A stretch of DNA of 64,000 nt, taken from assembly GCA_029261815.1 (NCBI GenBank), contig JAJDAQ010000086.1:47448-111447 (forward strand). The letters run 5' to 3'. Source of the stretch: Deltaproteobacteria bacterium. Its GTDB lineage: Bacteria > Myxococcota_A > UBA9160 > UBA6930. The translations under genes were made by a program, and so were the position numbers. Positions 48,724 to 57,801 of the stretch are shown here, piece after piece. The notes beneath the pieces were generated by a model. It ran no database searches. It saw only the letters and a list, made by a program, of their open reading frames with translations, and was not told the DNA's origin. Numbering within the stretch: position 1 is the stretch's first letter; the number at the start of each line of letters is the position of its first letter.

Positions 48724-50091
48724 ATGGCCATCGAACCCCTGATCGAAATCGAAGCCGGGCAGGGCCCGCGCTCATCGGGCGTGACCTACCAGGACCTGCT
48801 CGACGCAGAGACCCGCGAGGTTCCCGAGGTGCTGCGCATGCAGGCCGCGCGGGAGACCCCGGTCGTGCGGGTGCCCATCGACCGGTACACGTCGCAGGAG
48901 TTCCACGACCTCGAGGTCGAGAAGGTCTGGAAGAAGGTCTGGCAGTTCGCCTGCCGGGAGGAGCAGATCCCCGAGCCCGGTGACCATACGGTCTACGACA
49001 TTGCGAACCTGTCGATCCTGGTCCTTCGCGACGAAAGCGGAGAGATTCGGGCGCACCACAACGTCTGCCTGCATCGCGGCCGCGCGCTGAAGGACTTCGA
49101 CGGCAACAGCAGCGACCTCCGCTGCCCGTTTCACGGCTGGACGTGGAACCTTGACGGCTCGCTGAAGGAGATCCCCTGCCGCTGGGACTTTCCGGATGTC
49201 GACCAGGACGACTATGCGCTCCCGCCGGTGAAGGTCGCGCTCTGGGGCGGCTTCGTGTTCATCAATCTGGACCCGGACTGCGAGCCCTTCGAGAACCATA
49301 TCGGCGATCTGGGCAAGCACTTCGAGCGTTGGCCGCTCGAGAAGCGATACACCGAAGCCCACGTTGCCAAGCTCCTGCGCTGCAACTGGAAGGTGGCCCA
49401 GGAGGCCTTCATGGAGGCCTACCACGTCGTCGGGACCCATCCGCAGATTCTGGCTGGAATCGGCGATGCGAATACCCAGTACGATGCCTGGGACACGTTC
49501 TCGCGCGCGATGACGCCTAACATGACGCCGAGCCCCCACCTGACCGAGGAGCCCACAGAGCAGGAGATGATCAACTCCATGCTTTCGGTGAGTCTCGACG
49601 AGGGGCCGATGTTCAACGTGCCCGAAGACATGACGGCGCGGCAGATGCTGGGCCAGATGACGCGGATGCAGCTCCAGGCGCAGGTGCCGTCGGTGCAAGA
49701 ATTGACCGACGCCGAGCTGGCCGATTCGTTCTACTACACGCTGTTCCCGAATTTTCATCCGTGGGGCGCGTACAACAAGATCGTCTACCGCTTCCGGCCG
49801 TACAAGAACAAGCCGAACGAGTGCATCATGGAAGTGCTCTTCCTGTCGCCGTTCCGCGGCCGCAGGCCTCCGGCGGCCAAGGTCAAGTGGATCGATTTCG
49901 ATGCGCCGTGGAGCGACGCGATTCCCGAGTTCGGAAGCCTGGCCAAGGTCTTCTCGCAGGATGCGTACAATATTCCGCATGTGCAGAAGGGCCTCGAAGC
50001 GGCGCAGCACACGCACGTGACCTTCGCGAACTACCAGGAAACGAAGATCCGTCACTTCCATACGCTGCTCGAGAAGTATCTGCAGGCGTAG
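48724..50091 (+). CDS. Rieske [2Fe-2S] non-heme-iron oxygenase, alpha subunit
   Basis: Rieske motif CLHRG...CPFHGW, mononuclear-iron motif EAYHVVGTHP; 455 aa. No beta subunit is adjacent. Confidence 0.85.
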   Translation: MAIEPLIEIEAGQGPRSSGVTYQDLLDAETREVPEVLRMQAARETPVVRVPIDRYTSQEFHDLEVEKVWKKVWQFACREEQIPEPGDHTVYDIANLSILVLRDESGEIRAHHNVCLHRGRALKDFDGNSSDLRCPFHGWTWNLDGSLKEIPCRWDFPDVDQDDYALPPVKVALWGGFVFINLDPDCEPFENHIGDLGKHFERWPLEKRYTEAHVAKLLRCNWKVAQEAFMEAYHVVGTHPQILAGIGDANTQYDAWDTFSRAMTPNMTPSPHLTEEPTEQEMINSMLSVSLDEGPMFNVPEDMTARQMLGQMTRMQLQAQVPSVQELTDAELADSFYYTLFPNFHPWGAYNKIVYRFRPYKNKPNECIMEVLFLSPFRGRRPPAAKVKWIDFDAPWSDAIPEFGSLAKVFSQDAYNIPHVQKGLEAAQHTHVTFANYQETKIRHFHTLLEKYLQA

Positions 50092-50106
50092 GTTCGAGGG
50101 AAGATC

Positions 50107-50304
50107 GTGGCGTTTGAAGTGCAGGTGGACCGCACCCGTTGCCGCGGTTCGAGGTCATGCGTGCGGCGCGCGCCGGGTACTTTTTCGCTCGATGAGGAGC
50201 GTATCGCGGTCGTTGCAGAGCGTCCGACGGACTCCGAAGAGGCGATTCGCGAAGCCGCTGCCGTTTGTCCATTCTTTGCGATCTCTACCAAGGAGACTCG
50301 ATGA
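50107..50304 (+). CDS. Small single-cluster ferredoxin
   Basis: 65 aa with Cys pattern C-x5-C ... CP (RCRGSRSC ... AAVCPFFAI). GTG follows GAGGGAAG. Confidence 0.7.
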   Translation: MAFEVQVDRTRCRGSRSCVRRAPGTFSLDEERIAVVAERPTDSEEAIREAAAVCPFFAISTKETR

Positions 50305-51062
50305 CTGATGCCCCGAAGGAACGTGTGGACGCCGTCCTGATCGCAGGTGGCCGTTATCACGACATCGACTATGCGCGTGGGGAACTCCTGAAGCTGTTGG
50401 CCGAGCACCCGCATGTCCGTGTGACGGTCGACTCGGACTACCGGAATACCGAGGCCATCGAAGCCGCGGATTTCCTCATCACGTATACGTGCGACGTGCG
50501 TCCGACCGACGCGCAGCAAGAGGTCCTGGCCGACTACGTTTCCAGCGGCGGCCGCTGGATGGCGCTGCACGGAACGAACTCGGCCCTCGACTTCGTCGAG
50601 AATGGTGTCGACGCGCCGCGCTCCGCGTTTCCGAAGATGGCCCATACGCTGGGCAGTCAGTTCGTGGCACACCCGCCCATCCAGAAATACAAGGTCGAGA
50701 AGCGGAGTCCGGATCATCCGCTGGTGTCTGGTGTCGATGAGTTCGAAACCGACGACGAGCTCTACCTCTGCGAGTATCACGATTTCGACAAGCTCGAAGT
50801 CCTGCTCGATTGCCACTACGCCGGCAAGGCGGAGGGTTTCATCGAAGCCAACTGGGACGATGCAGACCGCCACCTCGTGATGTACCTGCGACCGTTGGGG
50901 GAAGGGGCCGTCCTCTACAACACCTTGGGCCACTGCCGAGGGCATTGGGATATGCGGCCGGCCATGGACTACTACCCGGTCGTCGAACGCTGCTCCTGGG
51001 AGAAGCCCGAGTACCATGAGCTTCTCCGGCGGGGGATTCGTTGGTGCCTTCAGGAACTCTAG
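50301..51062 (+). CDS. ThuA-domain protein
   Basis: ATG at 50301 follows AAGGAG and overlaps the ferredoxin stop (ATGA). Motifs VLIAGGRYHDIDYAR, WMALHGTNS, ELYLCEYHD. Confidence 0.65.
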   Translation: MTDAPKERVDAVLIAGGRYHDIDYARGELLKLLAEHPHVRVTVDSDYRNTEAIEAADFLITYTCDVRPTDAQQEVLADYVSSGGRWMALHGTNSALDFVENGVDAPRSAFPKMAHTLGSQFVAHPPIQKYKVEKRSPDHPLVSGVDEFETDDELYLCEYHDFDKLEVLLDCHYAGKAEGFIEANWDDADRHLVMYLRPLGEGAVLYNTLGHCRGHWDMRPAMDYYPVVERCSWEKPEYHELLRRGIRWCLQEL

Positions 51063-51087
51063 GCGGCGTCGCGTCCAGGCCTTCGTG

Positions 51088-51624
51088 ATGCGCGCGATCG
51101 CGCTTCGACGTTACGTCCCGGAAGACGCGTACGCGTTGACTGAAGCCGCACACGAGTCGTGGCGCGAAGTCGGCCCCTGGATGGAGTGGTGCAAGCCCGA
51201 TCTGCCGCTTCGCGAAGCGGAAGCCTGGGTCGCCGAGCAGGTCCAGCGCTTCAACGAGGGGACGGCCTACGAGTTCACGATTCGTGACGCAGGAGACGGC
51301 GCATATCTGGGCGCATGTGGGGTCAACCACATCGAGCCCGTGAACCGCTACGCGAACCTGGGGTATTGGGTGCGCACGTCGGCAACGCGCCAGGGCGTTT
51401 GTCAGCAGGCGGTGAAGCAGCTTGCGGGCTGGATATTCGGGAACACCGATCTGGTGCGGCTCGAAATCGTTGCCGCAGTCGGCAACGCGGCCAGCCAACG
51501 CGCCGCAGAGAAGGCGGGCGCCGAGCGTGAGGGAACCCTTCGCAAGCGCCTGAAGATGCACGGACTGTGGCATGATGCCGCCATCTACTCGCTGACCCGA
51601 GACAGCGTCCCGACGGCGCCGTAA
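51088..51624 (+). CDS. GNAT N-acetyltransferase, RimJ/RimL-like
   Basis: LRRYVPEDAYAL..., ANLGYWVRTSATRQGV, NAASQRAAEKAGAEREGTLRKR. Confidence 0.75.
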   Translation: MRAIALRRYVPEDAYALTEAAHESWREVGPWMEWCKPDLPLREAEAWVAEQVQRFNEGTAYEFTIRDAGDGAYLGACGVNHIEPVNRYANLGYWVRTSATRQGVCQQAVKQLAGWIFGNTDLVRLEIVAAVGNAASQRAAEKAGAEREGTLRKRLKMHGLWHDAAIYSLTRDSVPTAP

Positions 51625-51659
51625 ACGCGCGACACACCTCGGAACCCGGAGTCGTCCTG

Positions 51660-52175
51660 TTGGATTCTCGCATCTCGATCGGTTGGAACGAATACGTGGA
51701 CCTGCCGGAATGGGGGGTCAAGGGCCTCAAGGCCAAGGCCGACTCGGGCGCCAAGACCAGCGCTCTCCATGTCGAAGACATCGAACTGCTGCCGCGCGGT
51801 CGCATCCGGTTCGTGGTGATCGTCCACCGCGAACAGCGAGATCGCCACGTGCGCGTGGAAGCCCGCATCGTGCGCAGGAGCCGTGTCCGGTCGAGCACGG
51901 GCCACTACGCATTCCGGTATTTCGTCTCGACCACGCTGCGCCTCGGCGGGATCGAGCGTGAGGTCGAGATCAGCCTGGTAGACCGGGAAAAAATGACCTT
52001 CCGCATGTTGCTTGGGCGGTCGGCGCTCGCCGGAGGCTTCGTGATTGATCCTGGGCGTCGGCGAATGCTCGGAAATCGCAAGGTTCGCCGAAAGCCCACG
52101 CTGAAGACCAAGCGCAAGACCGCACTCAAGAACAAGGTCGCGAGCAAGCGCCCGGTGAAGCGCAAGCGAACCTGA
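51660..52175 (+). CDS. RimB/DUF785-family retropepsin-like endopeptidase (annotated elsewhere as ATP-dependent zinc protease) with a Lys/Arg-rich C-terminal tail
   Basis: IGWNEYVDLPEWGVKGLKAKADSGAKTSALHVEDI (DSG active-site-like motif). The tail is RKVRRKPTLKTKRKTALKNKVASKRPVKRKRT. TTG start. Confidence 0.75.
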   Translation: MDSRISIGWNEYVDLPEWGVKGLKAKADSGAKTSALHVEDIELLPRGRIRFVVIVHREQRDRHVRVEARIVRRSRVRSSTGHYAFRYFVSTTLRLGGIEREVEISLVDREKMTFRMLLGRSALAGGFVIDPGRRRMLGNRKVRRKPTLKTKRKTALKNKVASKRPVKRKRT

Positions 52176-52185
52176 CCGGGCACGC

Positions 52186-53187
52186 TCAGGTCAGCAGCGT
52201 CTGGAACTCTTCGACCGACGAAGCGGCGTCATCGAGTCGCTCGAACGTCGCAACGTGGAAGAGCGCGTCGCCTTCGTTGACGACAGGGATCTCGCTTCGC
52301 CCGATGATCAGACCCGCGTCGGGACTCAGTACTTCCGACTCGTCTGATCCGAGCGGGTCGGCGACGTGAGCCAGGAGCTGGCCCTTCTCGACGCGGTCCC
52401 CCAGGTCGACGTGTGCGCGAACGAGACCGCCCTGGGGTGCCCTCGTCCAGCGACTGCCTTGCGCGATCATCGGAGGCGCTCCGGGTTTTGACTTGATCTC
52501 GGGCAACATGTTCAGGGCGCGCATCACGTTGAGGATTCCGCGTTCGCCGCCCCGGATGGCCCACTTGTCGAATCGCAGGGCTTCGCCGGCTTCGTACAGC
52601 AGCATCGGGATCCCGGTGTCGACCACCGTCTGTCGGAGCGACCCATCTCGCAAGTTGGAGTTCAGGATGACGGGCACCCCGAAGGCCCGCGCAAGGCGTT
52701 CGGTCTCCTGGTCGTCCAGGCACGCGCGAATCTGGGGAAGGTTGGTGCGATGCACCGCTCCTGTGTGCAGGTCGATCCCGTGGGTCGCGTTCGAGATGAT
52801 CTCGCGCACGAACGTGTCTGCGAGTCGCGCCGCCAAGGAGCCCTGACTTGAGCCGGGGAACGACCGGTTCAGGTCGCGTCGGTCGGGGAGGTAGCGACTC
52901 AGCGAGACGAAGCCGTACACGTTGACGACCGGGACCGCGATCAGGCTGCCGCGCAGGCTGGTGAGCGCGCGACGCCGCAGGATCCGCCGGATGATTTCGA
53001 CCCCGTTGATCTCGTCGCCATGGATGGCGGCGCAGATGAACAGCCGAGGGCCCGGCTTGCGGCCGTGAACGACTTCGACAGGGAGCGAGACTTCGGCACC
53101 CGACGCGCGTCGGCTCACCGGGATCTGGACGGTTCCGCGTGATCCCGGCGCGAACTCGACACCGCCGATATGGAGCGACTCACTCAC
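52186..53187 (-). CDS. Succinylglutamate desuccinylase/aspartoacylase (AstE/AspA) family zinc deacylase
   Basis: RLFICAAIHGDEINGVEI zinc-binding H..E motif and DLNRSFPG. Its start overlaps the rimK stop by 8 nt. Confidence 0.8.
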   Translation of the reverse strand: MSESLHIGGVEFAPGSRGTVQIPVSRRASGAEVSLPVEVVHGRKPGPRLFICAAIHGDEINGVEIIRRILRRRALTSLRGSLIAVPVVNVYGFVSLSRYLPDRRDLNRSFPGSSQGSLAARLADTFVREIISNATHGIDLHTGAVHRTNLPQIRACLDDQETERLARAFGVPVILNSNLRDGSLRQTVVDTGIPMLLYEAGEALRFDKWAIRGGERGILNVMRALNMLPEIKSKPGAPPMIAQGSRWTRAPQGGLVRAHVDLGDRVEKGQLLAHVADPLGSDESEVLSPDAGLIIGRSEIPVVNEGDALFHVATFERLDDAASSVEEFQTLLT

Positions 53188-54376
53188 CCGAAGACTGCCT
53201 CAGCGCCGACTTCGACGGCTTTCGCTTCTTCTTGGAACGCCGGTCCGGGGCGAGCCCTCGGAGCGTGAGTGTCTTGCCGAAGCAGAGCAGCACGTCTCCA
53301 GGCAGGATCTCGCGCGACATCATGGGGTTCGGGATCGAAATCGTGTCCCGGTGGATTGTCAGCACCAGCACGTCGTGATCCCTGAGCTTCGAGTCCGCGA
53401 TCGTCTTGTGCGCAAGCGAAGAGGTCTCGTCGATCGGAATCTCCATCACCCCGTAGCCACTCTGGAGGGTCAGGCGCTGACGGATGTCGATATCCGGGAA
53501 CAGCACCTCGTTCTCGATCAACTGCACGATCTCGCCGGCGACATCGATTCCTGTCGCAGTTTCGATGCCCTCGAGGCCGGGGGACGAGTTGACCTCCATG
53601 AGGATCGGGCCGTCCTTGCCCTCGAGCATGTCGACACCGGCCACCCGCAGCCCAAGAATCTGCGCTGCATGAACGGCCGTCCGTTCGTATTCGGGCTCCA
53701 GTTCCAGGACTTCGGCGCTACCGCCGCGGTGGATGTTGCTGCGAAACTCATCGCCCTGGGCCGTCCGTCGCATCGCGGCCACGACCCGGTCGCCGACGAC
53801 GAACGCGCGCACATCCTTGCCCTTGCTCTCCTTCACGAACTGCTGGAGCAAGACGCTCATCTTCGCCGGACCGGAAAGTGTTTCGATGATGGCTTCGGCG
53901 ACCGCGGACGTTTCGGCCAGGATGACGCCGATGCCCTGGGTGCCCTCGAGCAGCTTGACGACGACGGGCGGGCCTCCCATGCGTTCGATGCCGGGGAGGA
54001 TCTCGCTGCTATGCCGAACGAACAAGGTCTTCGGAATCCCGACGCGGTGGCGGGAAAGCACCTGCAGCGCCCGCAGCTTGTCTCGGGACACGGAGATGCC
54101 GTGGGACGGATTGACGCAGAAGACGCCCATCTGCTCGAACTGGCGAACGACCGCGGTGCCGAAGAATGTGACGGACGCGCCGATGCGCGGGATCACGGCA
54201 TCGTAGTCGCCGAGGCGTTTGTTCTTGTAGTAGAGCGTCGGGTCGCCTTCTTCGACTTCGATCGAGAACGACAGAGTATTCAGGACGCGCGCTTCATGTC
54301 CTCGCGACTCGGCGGCTTCCTTGAGGCGCTTCGTGCTGTAGAGGCGCGGGCCTCGGGAGAGAATCGCGATCTTCAT
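53180..54376 (-). CDS. rimK: RimK-type ATP-grasp alpha-L-glutamate ligase fused to a C-terminal TrkA_C (RCK_C) domain and a basic tail
   Basis: MKIAILSR...YDAVIPRIG, VVVKLLEGTQGIGV, FRSNIHRGG, MEVNSSPGLEGIE. The TrkA_C-like segment is GYGVMEIPIDETSSLAHKTIADSKLRDHDVLVLTIHRD...LPGDVLLCFG. The tail is RRSKKKRKPSKS. Confidence 0.85.
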   Translation of the reverse strand: MKIAILSRGPRLYSTKRLKEAAESRGHEARVLNTLSFSIEVEEGDPTLYYKNKRLGDYDAVIPRIGASVTFFGTAVVRQFEQMGVFCVNPSHGISVSRDKLRALQVLSRHRVGIPKTLFVRHSSEILPGIERMGGPPVVVKLLEGTQGIGVILAETSAVAEAIIETLSGPAKMSVLLQQFVKESKGKDVRAFVVGDRVVAAMRRTAQGDEFRSNIHRGGSAEVLELEPEYERTAVHAAQILGLRVAGVDMLEGKDGPILMEVNSSPGLEGIETATGIDVAGEIVQLIENEVLFPDIDIRQRLTLQSGYGVMEIPIDETSSLAHKTIADSKLRDHDVLVLTIHRDTISIPNPMMSREILPGDVLLCFGKTLTLRGLAPDRRSKKKRKPSKSALRQSSGE

Positions 54377-54441
54377 GGGCTTGGGCCTCGGTTTAGGATG
54401 GCGACGCGCGGTCGCCAGAACCTCGGGTAGGTGGAGCGTTC

Positions 54442-54456
54442 ACTCATTCAATGAGT
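54442..54456. promoter_or_regulatory. Inverted repeat ACTCATT-C-AATGAGT upstream of rimK
   Basis: Perfect 7-bp arms in an AT-richer patch, 66 nt upstream of the rimK start codon. Confidence 0.25.
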
Positions 54457-54567
54457 TGCGCTTCGTCTCGAGCGAAAACGCGACGTTCGGCAGGTCTTCT
54501 GTGCCCAGCTTGTGGCGAACCGTCAGAGCATCACCGACTTGACGGGCCCGTGCCCGCGCCGGCTGGC

Positions 54568-56745
54568 CTATGCAGGCGGCGCTGCCTCTGCGACCGCGAA
54601 GACGTTGACCGGGATCGCGCTCTGCCGGGCCATACCCGTGATCGGGTCGTAGTCGGTCGCGTCGTCGACCAGTCGATTGGTGGCGGCCCCCATCTCGCGC
54701 ACCTTGGCATCTTCGTTGGGGGTATCGCCCCAGGCGTGGGCCATCGAGATGACGCCACGACGGATTTCGTCACTGGCTTCGACGACGGCGGGCACGCTGG
54801 CGTGCTCCGAGCGGATCTCGACGAGGTCGCCGGTCGCGATTCCGAGGGCATCGAGGTCTTCCGGGTTCATGAAGGCCGGGTTGGTCGTGCCTTCCTTTCG
54901 GATGGCGTCGAGGTACTGGCCCGAGGAATTGTAGACGTGGCGCAACCGTCGCGAGATGAGGCGATGGCTGAAGCTGTCGCCGTCCTCGCCGTAACCGGCA
55001 CCATCGGGCGTGAAGGTCTCCGCCCGGATCTCGTGCAGGTCATTGCAGACATCGACCGGCCCCACGTCGAGTTTTCCTTCGTTGCCGGGGTCAGCCGGCT
55101 GGACCGTGATGGCGACATCGTCGTAGACCTGTCCGCCCGGGGCTTCACGAATCTCGGCCAGGTCCACCCGCGACCGCGGCAGTACCCGCCTCATCACGTC
55201 GAGCTTCGACGGCTTTGCATCGACGGGCAGTTCGCCGCCGGCGAGGGGGATCGGCGTGCCGAGACGGTGCGCCATCCCCCAGTAGATCTCCCACTCTTCG
55301 ATGGCGTCGAAGCCGGGGTCGGCCACGGCCTGCGTGTAGTGCGCGTACGGCATCGAGTACCACGAGTCGGTCAGGATGTTCACGTCTTCGCGCTCGATGT
55401 GGATCTTGGGAGCGATGACGTAGTCGGCCAGCTTGGCCGTCGCCGAAAGTCGGATGTCGGCACAGACCAGCAGGTCGAGTTCCGCGATCGCCCTCAGTGC
55501 CTTCTCCTGGTTCGGCCACGCGACGACGGGGTTGCCCCCCATGCAGAACAGGGCGCGGACCTGTCCGTCGCCCGGCATCAGGATTTCGTCGGCCAGGGCC
55601 GCCGTCGGCATCTCGCCCACACCCCCGATGAAGATCTCGCTGAGACCGCGAACGCGTGACTGCGCGCCGATGCCCCAAGCGGGGAAGGGCGGGATCGCCT
55701 GGGCCTTGCGCGGCGTCGGCGAAAGGATGCCCGGGTTCGGGACGGCATCGCCCTCGCGGTTTACACGTCCACATAACGTCGCGATGGCGAGTACGAAGTG
55801 CTCGGTGACATTTCCGCGCGGGGCCATGTTGGGCCCCGTGCCGCAACTCACGCCGCCGCGTGTGCCGCCGGCAAAGAGGCGGGCGGCTTCGACGACCTGG
55901 GCCGCCGGAACGCCGGCGCGGCTCTCGACGTACTCGGGCGTGAACGCCTCGACGGCGTCTCGCAGTCGATCGACACCATCGACGTGCGCGTTGCAGAACG
56001 CTTCGTCGTGGAGGCCTTCGCTCAGGATCACGCGCGCGATTCCGGCGAGCAGGGTCGGGTCCTCTCCGGGCTTCACCGCCAGGTGGAGGTCTGCGCGCCG
56101 CGCGACTTCGGTCCTTCGCGGGTCGATCACGATGACCTTCAGGCCACGCTTCTTGGCGTCGCGATAGCTCTTGGACGGGCTGAACGACGGAATTCCGCCG
56201 TAGGGCGAGAATGCCGAGACCAGCGGGTTGTTGCCGACCACCAGGATCGTGTCGGCACTCTCGAAACTATGGCCACCGGCACTCCAGAGTCCGTGGCGCG
56301 CCATCGCGACGAACTTGGCCGGCTGGTCGATCGTGACGCTCGTGTAGAACGACGGTGACTCGATCCCGGTATGCCAGCCGCGTGCGACGGCGAGTTGCGC
56401 CGAATTCTGGAACGAGTGGGTGCCGAGGTAGCTGGCGATGGCGCGCGGCCCGGACTCGGCGATGAGGCCCTTGAGGCGATCGGCGATCTCGTCCAGCGCC
56501 TGTTCGGTCGGGATCTCCTCGAAGTCGCCGGAAGACGTTCGCTTCAAGGACGAGCGCAGGCGCTCGGGATGGTTGGTGAGATCGGGCATCTGGCGGCCCT
56601 TGATGCAGGTGTAGCCGCCGTAGACGGGATCAGACGTGTCACCGCGGACCGCGACGAGCCGTCCGTCCGAGTCGACATCGGCCTCCATCGCGCAGTAGGC
56701 GTGGCAGATTCGGCAGTACGTCTTGTGTGTCGTGAGACTCATCAT
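54568..56745 (-). CDS. Molybdopterin (bis-MGD) oxidoreductase, cytoplasmic, with an N-terminal [4Fe-4S] motif (paralog of 17186-19369)
   Basis: The start MMSLTTHKTY at 56745/56742 follows GAGGAA. Motif CRICHAYC...CIKG. It aligns collinearly with the first copy (VIDPRR, PGEDPT.LAGI, GTGPNMA.RGN). The listed ORF extends upstream through an Arg-rich non-coding-like stretch. Confidence 0.8.
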   Translation of the reverse strand: MMSLTTHKTYCRICHAYCAMEADVDSDGRLVAVRGDTSDPVYGGYTCIKGRQMPDLTNHPERLRSSLKRTSSGDFEEIPTEQALDEIADRLKGLIAESGPRAIASYLGTHSFQNSAQLAVARGWHTGIESPSFYTSVTIDQPAKFVAMARHGLWSAGGHSFESADTILVVGNNPLVSAFSPYGGIPSFSPSKSYRDAKKRGLKVIVIDPRRTEVARRADLHLAVKPGEDPTLLAGIARVILSEGLHDEAFCNAHVDGVDRLRDAVEAFTPEYVESRAGVPAAQVVEAARLFAGGTRGGVSCGTGPNMAPRGNVTEHFVLAIATLCGRVNREGDAVPNPGILSPTPRKAQAIPPFPAWGIGAQSRVRGLSEIFIGGVGEMPTAALADEILMPGDGQVRALFCMGGNPVVAWPNQEKALRAIAELDLLVCADIRLSATAKLADYVIAPKIHIEREDVNILTDSWYSMPYAHYTQAVADPGFDAIEEWEIYWGMAHRLGTPIPLAGGELPVDAKPSKLDVMRRVLPRSRVDLAEIREAPGGQVYDDVAITVQPADPGNEGKLDVGPVDVCNDLHEIRAETFTPDGAGYGEDGDSFSHRLISRRLRHVYNSSGQYLDAIRKEGTTNPAFMNPEDLDALGIATGDLVEIRSEHASVPAVVEASDEIRRGVISMAHAWGDTPNEDAKVREMGAATNRLVDDATDYDPITGMARQSAIPVNVFAVAEAAPPA

Positions 56746-56777
56746 GGTTCCTCTACGGAGTGGAATGTACCGGTGGC

Positions 56778-57749
56778 CTAACTTCCTGCGAGCTTGGCGA
56801 CGACGGGTGCGAACGCGTCCATGACTTCGGCGCCTACGGAGACGTAGGAAATGCCGAAGGCTTCGCGGCGCCGTTGCAGCTCCTCGACGATCTCGTCGAC
56901 GCTGCCGAAGAGCGCGTGCGGATGCGCGCGCATCTCGTCCGGCGTGATCCCGAATGCGCCTGCCATTCCCTCGGCGACGGCGCCCTGTCCTTCGCCGATG
57001 AAGGCAAAGTAGGCCGCGATCTCGAGCTCCAGGTCGTCGAACCGGTCGCCGGCGGCATCGCGGATCCATCCGACCTTGTTCGCCGTCTCTTCAGCCGTGC
57101 CTGTCTTCACACCGTCGGGACCGATCACGCCCGATTGGTTGTTGAAGTTGAGGCTGACGATGTCGGCTTCGCGGGCGGCCAGGGACAGCACGCGCTTGCC
57201 GCCGCCGCCAATCATGATCGGCGGGTGCGGTTTCTGGATCGGCTGCGGGGCCGCCTCGTAGCCGCTGATGTTGATGTGGTCTCCCTTGACGTCGATCTGG
57301 CCGGGCGCGAAATGCGCTTTCATGAACGCCACGGTTTCCGCGAGGCGGGAGATGCGGACGGGTGCCGGATCGAAGTCGAGCCCGATGGCTTCGTACTCGC
57401 CCGCAAGCCACCCCGCCCCGAGACCGAGTTCCAGGCGACCGCCGGAGAGCAGGTCCAACGTCGCCGCTTCCTTCGCCAGGACGGCCGCCGGTCGGTAGTC
57501 GATACAGAAAACGCGGCAGCCCACCTTCAGGGTCGACGTCGCTTCCGCCGCTACCGCGATCGCGGGAACGGCCGCCAATGTCTGCAGCGGATGATTCGTT
57601 GCTTCGAGCGCGGGGCCCGGCCCAAGGATGTGGTCGGCCAGATGCAGGGCTGAGAAGCCGAGGCCTTCGGCCTTGCGGGCGCGCTCTCGCCACTCGTCGC
57701 CGGAGTCTGCGCTGAAGCTCTGGACCGAGAATCGGAACGGATGGGGCAT
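56778..57749 (-). CDS. Luciferase-like (LLM class) flavin/F420-dependent oxidoreductase
   Basis: The start at 57749 follows AGGAG. Motifs FSALHLADHI, GRLELGLGAGW, KPHPPIMIGGGG. Confidence 0.8.
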   Translation of the reverse strand: MPHPFRFSVQSFSADSGDEWRERARKAEGLGFSALHLADHILGPGPALEATNHPLQTLAAVPAIAVAAEATSTLKVGCRVFCIDYRPAAVLAKEAATLDLLSGGRLELGLGAGWLAGEYEAIGLDFDPAPVRISRLAETVAFMKAHFAPGQIDVKGDHINISGYEAAPQPIQKPHPPIMIGGGGKRVLSLAAREADIVSLNFNNQSGVIGPDGVKTGTAEETANKVGWIRDAAGDRFDDLELEIAAYFAFIGEGQGAVAEGMAGAFGITPDEMRAHPHALFGSVDEIVEELQRRREAFGISYVSVGAEVMDAFAPVVAKLAGS

Positions 57750-57801
57750 GGCGGACTCCTGGCGCAAGGCAGCGGTGTCGATCGGACTGGAATCTTGCCG
57801 C

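Follow-up and report, generated by a model that had tools for sequence, protein, structure and literature searches.

The described systems closest to the locus studied here are RimABK and RimBK of Pseudomonas (PMC4741518; PMC7343187; PMC11957791). RimK adds alpha-linked glutamates to ribosomal protein S6 and also makes free poly-alpha-L-glutamate (PMC11957791). RimB, a retropepsin-like endopeptidase with catalytic residue D31 in a DTG motif, binds and stimulates RimK and cleaves poly-glutamate, for which it needs at least 5-6 contiguous glutamates; the two enzymes together yield free poly-glutamate of up to 28-36 residues in vitro, and poly-glutamate is found in vivo too (PMC11957791). We analysed a window of 64,000 nucleotides (the whole stretch presented here) from a Deltaproteobacteria bacterium, in which rimK and a RimB-type peptidase gene lie beside a gene for a zinc hydrolase of the AstE/AspA family, hereafter the AstE-like enzyme. 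We hold with high confidence that rimK, rimB and the AstE-like gene form a conserved three-gene module, and this trio probably makes and dismantles alpha-linked polyglutamate. RimK and RimB were already known; the conserved third enzyme and the fusion of a presumed sensor domain to the ligase are added here.

Two other systems combine related enzymes. In cyanophycin metabolism (PMC9974463), an ATP-grasp polymerase, CphA1, is followed by cyanophycinase and by the AstE-family dipeptidase CphZ, which hydrolyses the dipeptides left once cyanophycinase has fragmented the polymer. The RloABC system of P. aeruginosa (PMC12239564) is paralogous; it pairs the RimK-related ATP-grasp protein RloC with a retropepsin, RloA, that cleaves poly-glutamate in vitro, and it is required for hypo-osmotic stress tolerance. 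It differs from our locus in its secreted RloA and in RloB, a membrane pseudo-transglutaminase; the window contains neither RloB nor RloC.

An earlier reading of the window made without database searches (the sequence-only reading) had proposed a four-gene protein-glutamylation module. Its four open reading frames (ORFs) were verified in both position and Pfam family assignment:

51088..51624, plus strand: GNAT acetyltransferase (PF13302 Acetyltransf_3, E = 6e-24)
51660..52175, plus strand: RimB-type retropepsin-like aspartic endopeptidase, 171 amino acids (aa), TTG start (PF05618, E = 4e-26)
52186..53187, minus strand: AstE/AspA-family (M14-like) zinc hydrolase, 333 aa, GTG start (PF24827, E = 4e-39)
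53180..54376, minus strand: rimK, ATP-grasp alpha-L-glutamate ligase, 398 aa (PF18030 and PF08443)

The overlap and the convergent gap described in that reading are also real. The rimK stop and the AstE-like GTG start share 8 nt (GTGAGTGA, 53180-53187, minus strand), which likely couples translation of the two genes, and the stop codons of the RimB and AstE-like genes face each other across the 10 bp at 52176-52185. For the GNAT gene, an upstream ATG at 51016 is a possible start and was chosen in the public gene call. A promoter and terminator scan of 50900-54700 revealed nothing exceeding shuffled expectation, and no terminator-like site was present in or near the 10-bp spacer. rpsF was not found in the 64-kb window.

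The window RimK and RimB-type proteins resemble the Pseudomonas pair: the ligase matches solved RimK structures (Pseudomonas 7QYR, E = 2e-99; E. coli 4IWX/5ZCT, E = 2e-86), the peptidase is a PF05618 retropepsin-like protein with a D-S/T-G motif, and both proteins are apparently cytoplasmic. The trio differs in adding the AstE/AspA-family hydrolase and a TrkA_C domain on RimK, and in having no RimA. In addition, rimB of the window is convergent to rimK and not co-transcribed with it.

Conservation of the three-gene linkage

An alignment of AstE-like orthologues was used to search a one-genome-per-species collection, and the protein was found in at least 599 species. The best 80 loci of these (52-66% identical) formed the AstE-centred set, in which neighbours within 6 kb were sought by tblastn with the window proteins; related loci are labelled by L-numbers. 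The 80 loci came from Gammaproteobacteria, Desulfobacterales, Desulfuromonadales, Planctomycetota, Spirochaetales, Bacteroidota, Nitrospirota, Omnitrophota, Acidobacteria, Fraserbacteria and the archaeon Methanolobus. RimK lay within 6 kb of the AstE-like gene in 58/80 loci and RimB in 49/80. The commonest arrangement, found in 30 loci, was rimB, rimK and the AstE-like gene in that order on one strand, with RimK-to-AstE gaps mostly of about 35-85 nt. A RimK-centred set comprised 80 metagenome loci, 26 of which had at least 2 kb on both sides. Among these 26, the AstE-like gene was present in 12 and RimB in 17, and RimB accompanied the AstE-like gene in all 12 cases. The sequence-only reading had linked RimK, RimB and the AstE-like enzyme and had named non-conservation of the linkage as a refutation test; the linkage passed this test across phyla.

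Gene contacts are also retained. The closest relative (L083, 77% identity) has the layout of the window, with the RimK-TrkA_C and AstE-like genes overlapping and a convergent rimB beyond them, and the 8-nt overlap was seen again in L009 and L083. In L088, an overlap of RimB with the AstE-like gene is kept without RimK nearby. On a Vibrio europaeus replicon, RefSeq places rimK, the AstE-like gene and a PF05618 peptidase gene on a single strand; Neptuniibacter pectenicola and Thalassolituus pacificus are further culturable bacteria that carry the trio. RefSeq calls this peptidase a 'RimK/LysX family protein', which looks like a misannotation. In Methanolobus bombayensis (L040:4616-7017), the rimB stop overlaps the rimK start and the AstE-like gene abuts rimK; the trio adjoins the methanogen marker SepCysS and was probably acquired by horizontal transfer.

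The GNAT protein had been described as RimJ/RimL-like and placed in the module as its fourth component. The likeness stands at the level of the Pfam family; on the specific models it scored 50 bits for RimL (cutoff 184) and 22 bits for RimJ (cutoff 190). No GNAT gene was found in the genome loci (0/80) or the metagenome loci (0/80), or in L083-L088, and in L083 the place of GNAT is taken by MgtE. All-against-all clustering of neighbouring ORFs revealed no window gene beyond the trio that recurs. Because GNAT is absent from 160/160 related loci and from the closest relative, we rejected it as a module component; it is a bystander unrelated to the trio.

A joined ORF was considered separately. 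At L017:5524-7017, one 497-aa ORF contains a RimB domain and a full AstE-like domain. It was rejected as a Rosetta-stone fusion: a database search returned only stand-alone proteins of ~341 aa, one of them 97% identical, and the joined ORF is probably a product of stop-codon loss or assembly error.

In one lineage, a second AstE/AspA paralogue occurs at L085:196-3943 (also in L086 and L087), beside an RloB-like seven-transmembrane pseudo-transglutaminase gene and an RloC-type gene. This paralogue (388 aa) is 41% identical to the window AstE-like protein and has the same signature motifs and ~48 extra N-terminal residues. The RloC-type alpha-L-glutamate-ligase-like gene scored 339 bits on TIGR02291 (cutoff 314), and the paralogue with its RloB and RloC genes is divergent from the RimK-RimB-AstE operon. 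The L085 paralogue suggests that the AstE-like subfamily pairs repeatedly with glutamate-ligase systems. After the module, at L083:6676-9559 (also L084), come MgtE, a PP2C phosphatase and another RimK-like ATP-grasp gene, which is short; the latter is paired with a MATCAP/QEGLA-family (PF08014) putative carboxypeptidase, which would be a further pair of ligase and C-terminal peptidase.

The window genes around the module look unrelated to it. Those at 48724-51062 and 54568-57767 appear to be catabolic and include genes for the alpha subunit of a Rieske ring-hydroxylating oxygenase, a ThuA-like protein, a molybdopterin oxidoreductase and a luciferase-like monooxygenase; the related loci showed no recurrence of any of them.

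Domains and active sites of the three enzymes

The AstE-like protein has a complete and conserved active site. Residue conservation was counted over an alignment of 81 AstE-like copies:

53011..53022, minus strand: H56-G-D-E59, zinc ligands 1 and 2; H56, D58 and E59 in 81/81; equivalent to CphZ H50/E53
52864..52896, minus strand: R98...D-R103-R104-D-L-N107-R108, clamp for the substrate C-terminal carboxylate; R98, R104, N107 and R108 in 81/81
52765..52767, minus strand: H141, third zinc ligand; 81/81; aligns with the DxH motif of 3CDX and DoeB
52591..52593, minus strand: E199, general base/acid; 81/81; aligns with the conserved Glu of 3CDX and DoeB; equivalent to CphZ E251

R98, N107 and R108 correspond to CphZ R102, N112 and R113, which hold the free C-terminal carboxylate of the substrate. 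Residues R98 and Y99 fall in a loop (residues 90-101) that the AlphaFold2 model gives low confidence and that is probably mobile. The zinc ligands, the Glu base and the Arg/Asn-Arg clamp place the protein in the AstE/AspA superfamily. Since the conserved active site is complete, the AstE-like protein is predicted to be a zinc amidohydrolase that releases a C-terminal amino acid; the sequence-only reading had pointed to the carboxypeptidase-like fold of the family, and a carboxypeptidase-type catalytic apparatus is present in full. Six further arginines are invariant (R104, R121, R147, R154, R185 and R249; 81/81). Neither DoeB nor 3CDX conserves five of them (R121, R147, R154, R185 and R249), and these clade-specific residues would fit an anionic substrate.

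The AlphaFold2 model (predicted local distance difference test score 85.6, predicted template modelling score 0.88) and a full-length Foldseek match revealed the two-domain fold of the family, a catalytic alpha/beta domain and a C-terminal beta-domain. By eye, there is no N-terminal signal-like segment, and the protein is judged cytoplasmic. In a Foldseek search of the PDB, the top matches were DoeB/EutE, an N-alpha-acetyl-diaminobutyrate deacetylase (6TWL/6TWM), and three uncharacterised structural-genomics proteins (3CDX, 3NA6 and 2QJ8), all full-length with template modelling (TM) scores of 0.77-0.80 and 25-27% identity. CphZ came next (TM about 0.65-0.69), then AstE, aminoacylase 3 and ASPA, and finally generic M14 enzymes including CCP5 (TM about 0.46, 12-14% identity). 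No M14 Pfam match was obtained, and the resemblance to CCP enzymes is a fold match at the level of the core. The equivalog cutoffs for DoeB (91.7 vs 402.7 bits), ASPA (24 vs 180) and AstE (15 vs 306) were not reached, which places the protein in a distinct, uncharacterised clade. No ectoine genes were found near the AstE-like gene. By the evidence of its conserved residues, its product is an intact zinc hydrolase of this clade.

Likeness to CphZ extends to the H-E-H zinc site, the Glu base and the Arg/Asn/Arg carboxylate clamp. Identity is 13%, and the HMMER alignment covers the C-terminal domain alone; we treat CphZ as an analogue and not as the AstE-like protein's own family. The acidic D222/E223 pocket that receives Arg/Lys in CphZ has no evident counterpart in the AstE-like protein, which has the extra invariant arginines instead. 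The polymer would also differ (alpha-linked poly-glutamate here, beta-Asp-Arg in cyanophycin), as does the upstream peptidase, an aspartic endopeptidase in the trio and a serine cyanophycinase in the cyanophycin system. Neither cphA nor cyanophycinase was recognised among annotated or recurrent neighbours in general annotation, no search having been aimed at either. Haloarchaeal plasmid matches (~37% identical, stand-alone) were treated as distant paralogues and not used.

RimK consists of a core (aa 1-290) with the Rimk_N (PF18030, E = 4e-40) and RimK ATP-grasp (PF08443, E = 6e-57) domains, followed by a C-terminal extension. On the NCBIfam equivalog model for S6--glutamate ligase (NF007764), it scored 333.4 bits, barely above the cutoff of 331. 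The extension carries two features, of which the first had been overlooked in the sequence-only reading:

53276..53449, minus strand: TrkA_C (RCK_C-type) domain at the RimK C-terminus, aa 310-367 (PF02080, 35.2 bits, cutoff 27)
53183..53251, minus strand: polybasic C-terminal tail of RimK (APDRRSKKKRKPSKSALRQSSGE, from the translation); a similar basic tail occurs in L009

The TrkA_C domain was kept in 120/120 top RimK homologue clusters (P0123-P0242) and in 80/80 metagenome relatives (L092-L171). This RimK-TrkA_C subfamily is abundant and strongly conserved, the 120 top clusters being 76-89% identical; sources name them only as 'S6--glutamate ligase', and we found no description of the fusion. 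The domain is presumed to be a regulatory domain that senses a ligand or ion. Its sequence similarity to the MthK RCK domain was weak and non-significant (E = 0.3), and a ligand taken from MthK was therefore rejected. RCK_C domains act as receptors for cyclic di-AMP (c-di-AMP) in some K+ transporters. At one locus (L009:1811-10093), genes for TrkH, a CNNM/CorC transporter, a DAC-domain diadenylate cyclase and MgtE border the cluster. By analogy, and from this single locus, the TrkA_C domain of RimK might be a c-di-AMP receptor.

The best NCBIfam match of the RimB-like protein was RimB (NF052261), ahead of RloA1-3. The score of 103 bits is below the equivalog cutoff of 200, so we call the protein 'RimB-type' and do not claim orthology. 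Two features were located in it:

51741..51749, plus strand: catalytic motif D28-S-G30, matching DTG/D31 of P. fluorescens RimB
52074..52172, plus strand: polybasic C-terminal tail (NRKVRRKPTLKTKRKTALKNKVASKRPVKRKRT), tail pI 12.0; shorter or missing in relatives

Related RimB-type proteins carry DTG where the window protein has D-S-G. Its place in the RimB group is indicated by the PF05618 fold with the D-T/S-G motif and by association with rimK, which lies <1 kb away in the window, an association recurring in 49/80 and 17/26 related loci. By homology, the protein is predicted to be polyglutamate-specific. Polybasic tails are present on both the RimB-type protein and RimK, with shorter forms in relatives, and could bind polyglutamate, RNA or the ribosome.

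Cation and osmotic genes at related loci

Genes for a Mg2+ transporter or an MscS-type channel were found within 6 kb in 26/58 RimK-linked loci, vs 1/22 RimK-less loci; by a rough estimate, chance alone would give a few per cent per locus. The RimK-linked loci contained CorA (15 loci; it often comes immediately after the AstE-like gene), MgtE (10), an MscS-type channel (15) and CNNM/CorC (4 clustered loci, plus L009). These genes occurred in many phyla, often on the same strand as the AstE-like gene and directly downstream of it, and the RimK-centred set showed the same pattern in 11/26 loci. The window itself has no such transport genes. The loci with Mg2+/MscS flanks are as follows:

L004-L006, L008-L010, L012, L015, L017, L021, L022, L027, L034-L036, L039, L040,
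L042, L047, L048, L051, L063, L065, L066, L078, L079; L089:6470-9398

On the Vibrio europaeus replicon pVeu-CECT8426 (L089:2337-10442), one strand carries, in order, genes for a dCache/HAMP/GGDEF diguanylate cyclase, RimK, the AstE-like enzyme, the PF05618 peptidase, MgtE, CorA, MscS and a universal stress protein. In an independent phylogenomic study, rimK (K05844), CorA and a mechanosensitive channel were enriched in brackish vs marine sister genomes.

The Mg2+ transporter and MscS neighbours, together with the TrkA_C fusion, suggest that the module is tied to cation or osmotic homeostasis, although such a role is speculative.

Proposed function and alternative explanations

In the mechanism we propose, RimK, with its TrkA_C sensor, would add glutamates singly to a protein C-terminus (that of S6, where present) or to free glutamate, the latter yielding free poly-alpha-L-glutamate; RimK homologues are known to carry out this step. 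RimB would then cut within runs of at least 5-6 glutamates, as is known for Pseudomonas RimB. In the third step, which we infer from linkage, active-site chemistry and family precedent, the AstE-like enzyme would act as a zinc carboxypeptidase or dipeptidase, grip the free C-terminal carboxylate and split off the last glutamate of short alpha-oligoglutamates, perhaps also that of short S6 tail stubs, so that free glutamate is returned. Because RimB needs at least 5-6 contiguous glutamates, shorter stretches are left, and the AstE-like enzyme is proposed as the missing finishing enzyme. That it is a finishing exopeptidase for short alpha-oligoglutamates or tail stubs is the reading we favour, with moderate confidence. 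The closer relatives are all small-substrate enzymes, so an eraser of short oligo-glutamates or tail stubs is more likely than a protein deglutamylase. The two erasers of the sequence-only reading therefore remain plausible, with the second recast as a small-substrate finishing peptidase rather than a CCP-like enzyme.

Archaea are not known to have ribosomal protein bS6. The Methanolobus ligase scored 465 bits on the RimK model and did not score as MptN or CofF. In this archaeon, the module must therefore act on some other target, such as free poly-glutamate or another protein. S6 is thus questionable as an obligate target and may not be the sole, or the main, substrate.

Several points weigh against the function proposed for the trio. 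Neither RimK nor RimB was within 6 kb in 22/80 AstE-centred loci, mostly of Halomonadaceae, and roughly half of the RimK-TrkA_C loci lacked a nearby AstE-like gene. No gene fusion recurred within the trio, the only in-frame RimB-AstE ORF being that in L017. The substrate specificity of the AstE-like enzyme cannot be read from its sequence. The characterised family members that we know of use non-peptide N-acyl amino acids or a beta-linked dipeptide, and none an alpha-peptide. The ion-homeostasis role, for its part, is drawn solely from gene neighbourhood. Linkage of the trio is strong but facultative. The stand-alone Halomonadaceae loci are L043, L045, L046, L050, L053, L055, L056, L059, L062, L064, L067, L073 and L080-L082, where the AstE-like gene adjoins a TetR regulator, DusA, catalase or RND efflux pump gene; these copies retain every invariant residue.

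The first alternative is the one from which the analysis started: a four-gene module for ribosome modification, in which the AstE-like enzyme trims the polyglutamate tail of S6 as CCP enzymes trim tubulin and GNAT acetylates ribosomal proteins. We regard it as unlikely. RimK does reach the cutoff for S6 ligases, and the GNAT gene precedes rimB by 35 nt on their common strand; against this stand the absence of GNAT from every related locus, including the closest relative, its distance from the RimJ and RimL cutoffs, and the presence of the trio, with a bona fide RimK, in Methanolobus, whose group has no bS6. The comparison with tubulin holds in concept, since the TTLL/CCP system also has an ATP-grasp glutamate 'writer' and a zinc 'eraser' with a carboxypeptidase fold. 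The AstE-like enzyme has a carboxypeptidase-type site and retrieves CCP5 at the fold level, and a flexible poly-glutamate tail might, in principle, thread into its channel. The match to CCP5, however, reflects a shared M14 core and is well below that to DoeB; the parallel survives for this general core, while the closer relatives are enzymes of small substrates. CCP-type M14 enzymes have an N-terminal beta-sandwich domain and act on protein tails, a description that does not fit the AstE-like enzyme. The AstE/AspA subfamily has instead an extra C-terminal domain and known substrates that are small. This beta-domain is kept in the AstE-like protein, and in ASPA it reportedly blocks access of polypeptides (Bitto et al. 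2007).

An explanation confined to small molecules is about equally improbable. Here, the RimK-type ligase would make a small glutamyl conjugate and the AstE-like enzyme would hydrolyse a small N-acyl amino acid, and neither a polymer nor a protein would take part. Ligase precedents are RIMKLA/B (N-acetyl-aspartyl-glutamate and beta-citrylglutamate) and the archaeal enzymes MptN and CofF, glutamylation of cofactors is known for RimK homologues, and the characterised AstE/AspA enzymes all use small substrates. In mammals, moreover, a GNAT (NAT8L), RimK-like ligases (RIMKLA-B) and an AspA-family hydrolase (ASPA) work on one metabolite family, N-acetylaspartate (NAA) and N-acetylaspartylglutamate (NAAG), and co-mentions of RimK with aspartoacylase all concern this pathway. 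It differs from the module, however, in being a small-molecule pathway with no counterpart of RimB, and GNAT is not conserved with the module here. The explanation would leave RimB, which acts on glutamate runs, without a role; RimB was present in every RimK-centred locus with the AstE-like gene. By score, RimK of the window and its relatives belong with the RimK equivalog rather than with MptN or CofF.

Least probable is mere co-regulation. The AstE-like enzyme would then break down an N-acylated osmolyte or amino-acid derivative, and a shared ionic or osmotic signal would account for its clustering with rimBK. In favour of this, DoeB, the nearest homologue of solved structure, acts on an N-acetyl compound derived from ectoine; the gene stands alone in 22/80 loci, mostly of halophilic Halomonadaceae; and genes for Mg2+ and mechanosensitive transport are frequent nearby. 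Against it, the DoeB score is far below its cutoff, and overlaps of start and stop codons with rimK or rimB, seen in several lineages, point to stoichiometric co-expression. A paralogue has its own, independent pairing with another glutamate-ligase-like system, and the stand-alone copies are fully conserved at the invariant positions.

Returning to the polyglutamate cycle, a broader role can be put forward tentatively. Glutamate is the main cytoplasmic anion. The trio could be a regulated cytoplasmic cycle of polymerisation and depolymerisation that buffers free glutamate and its K+/Mg2+ counter-ions, a cyanophycin-like 'charge and osmolyte capacitor'. It would be switched by TrkA_C and second messengers and would work with Mg2+ transporters and MscS, S6 modification being one output. 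We consider this possible but doubtful; if true, it would account for the persistence of the trio in an archaeon without bS6.

Overall, the four-gene interpretation is partly supported: its linkage of RimK, RimB and the AstE-like enzyme stands, and its inclusion of the acetyltransferase does not. In the Rim literature that we searched, no zinc-hydrolase partner, carboxypeptidase, magnesium or osmotic stress was mentioned. RimK was never co-mentioned with succinylglutamate desuccinylase, and RimK and a deacylase or aspartoacylase co-occurred only in unrelated or mammalian NAA/NAAG contexts. The comparative-genomics study of Iyer et al. 2009 reportedly connects RimK-like ligases to peptidases and may have noted such neighbourhoods.

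RimK and RimB are an active experimental topic, in Pseudomonas and E. coli only, for their roles in ribosome modification, proteome remodelling, virulence and antibiotic sensitivity. A third enzyme that accompanies rimK and rimB across much of bacterial diversity is a candidate for clearing short oligo-glutamates or tail stubs, and a large family of 'predicted deacylases' (at least 599 species) thereby gains a testable substrate hypothesis. Both the TrkA_C fusion and the repeated presence of Mg2+-transporter and MscS genes nearby draw attention to cation and osmotic homeostasis as a context for poly-alpha-glutamate.

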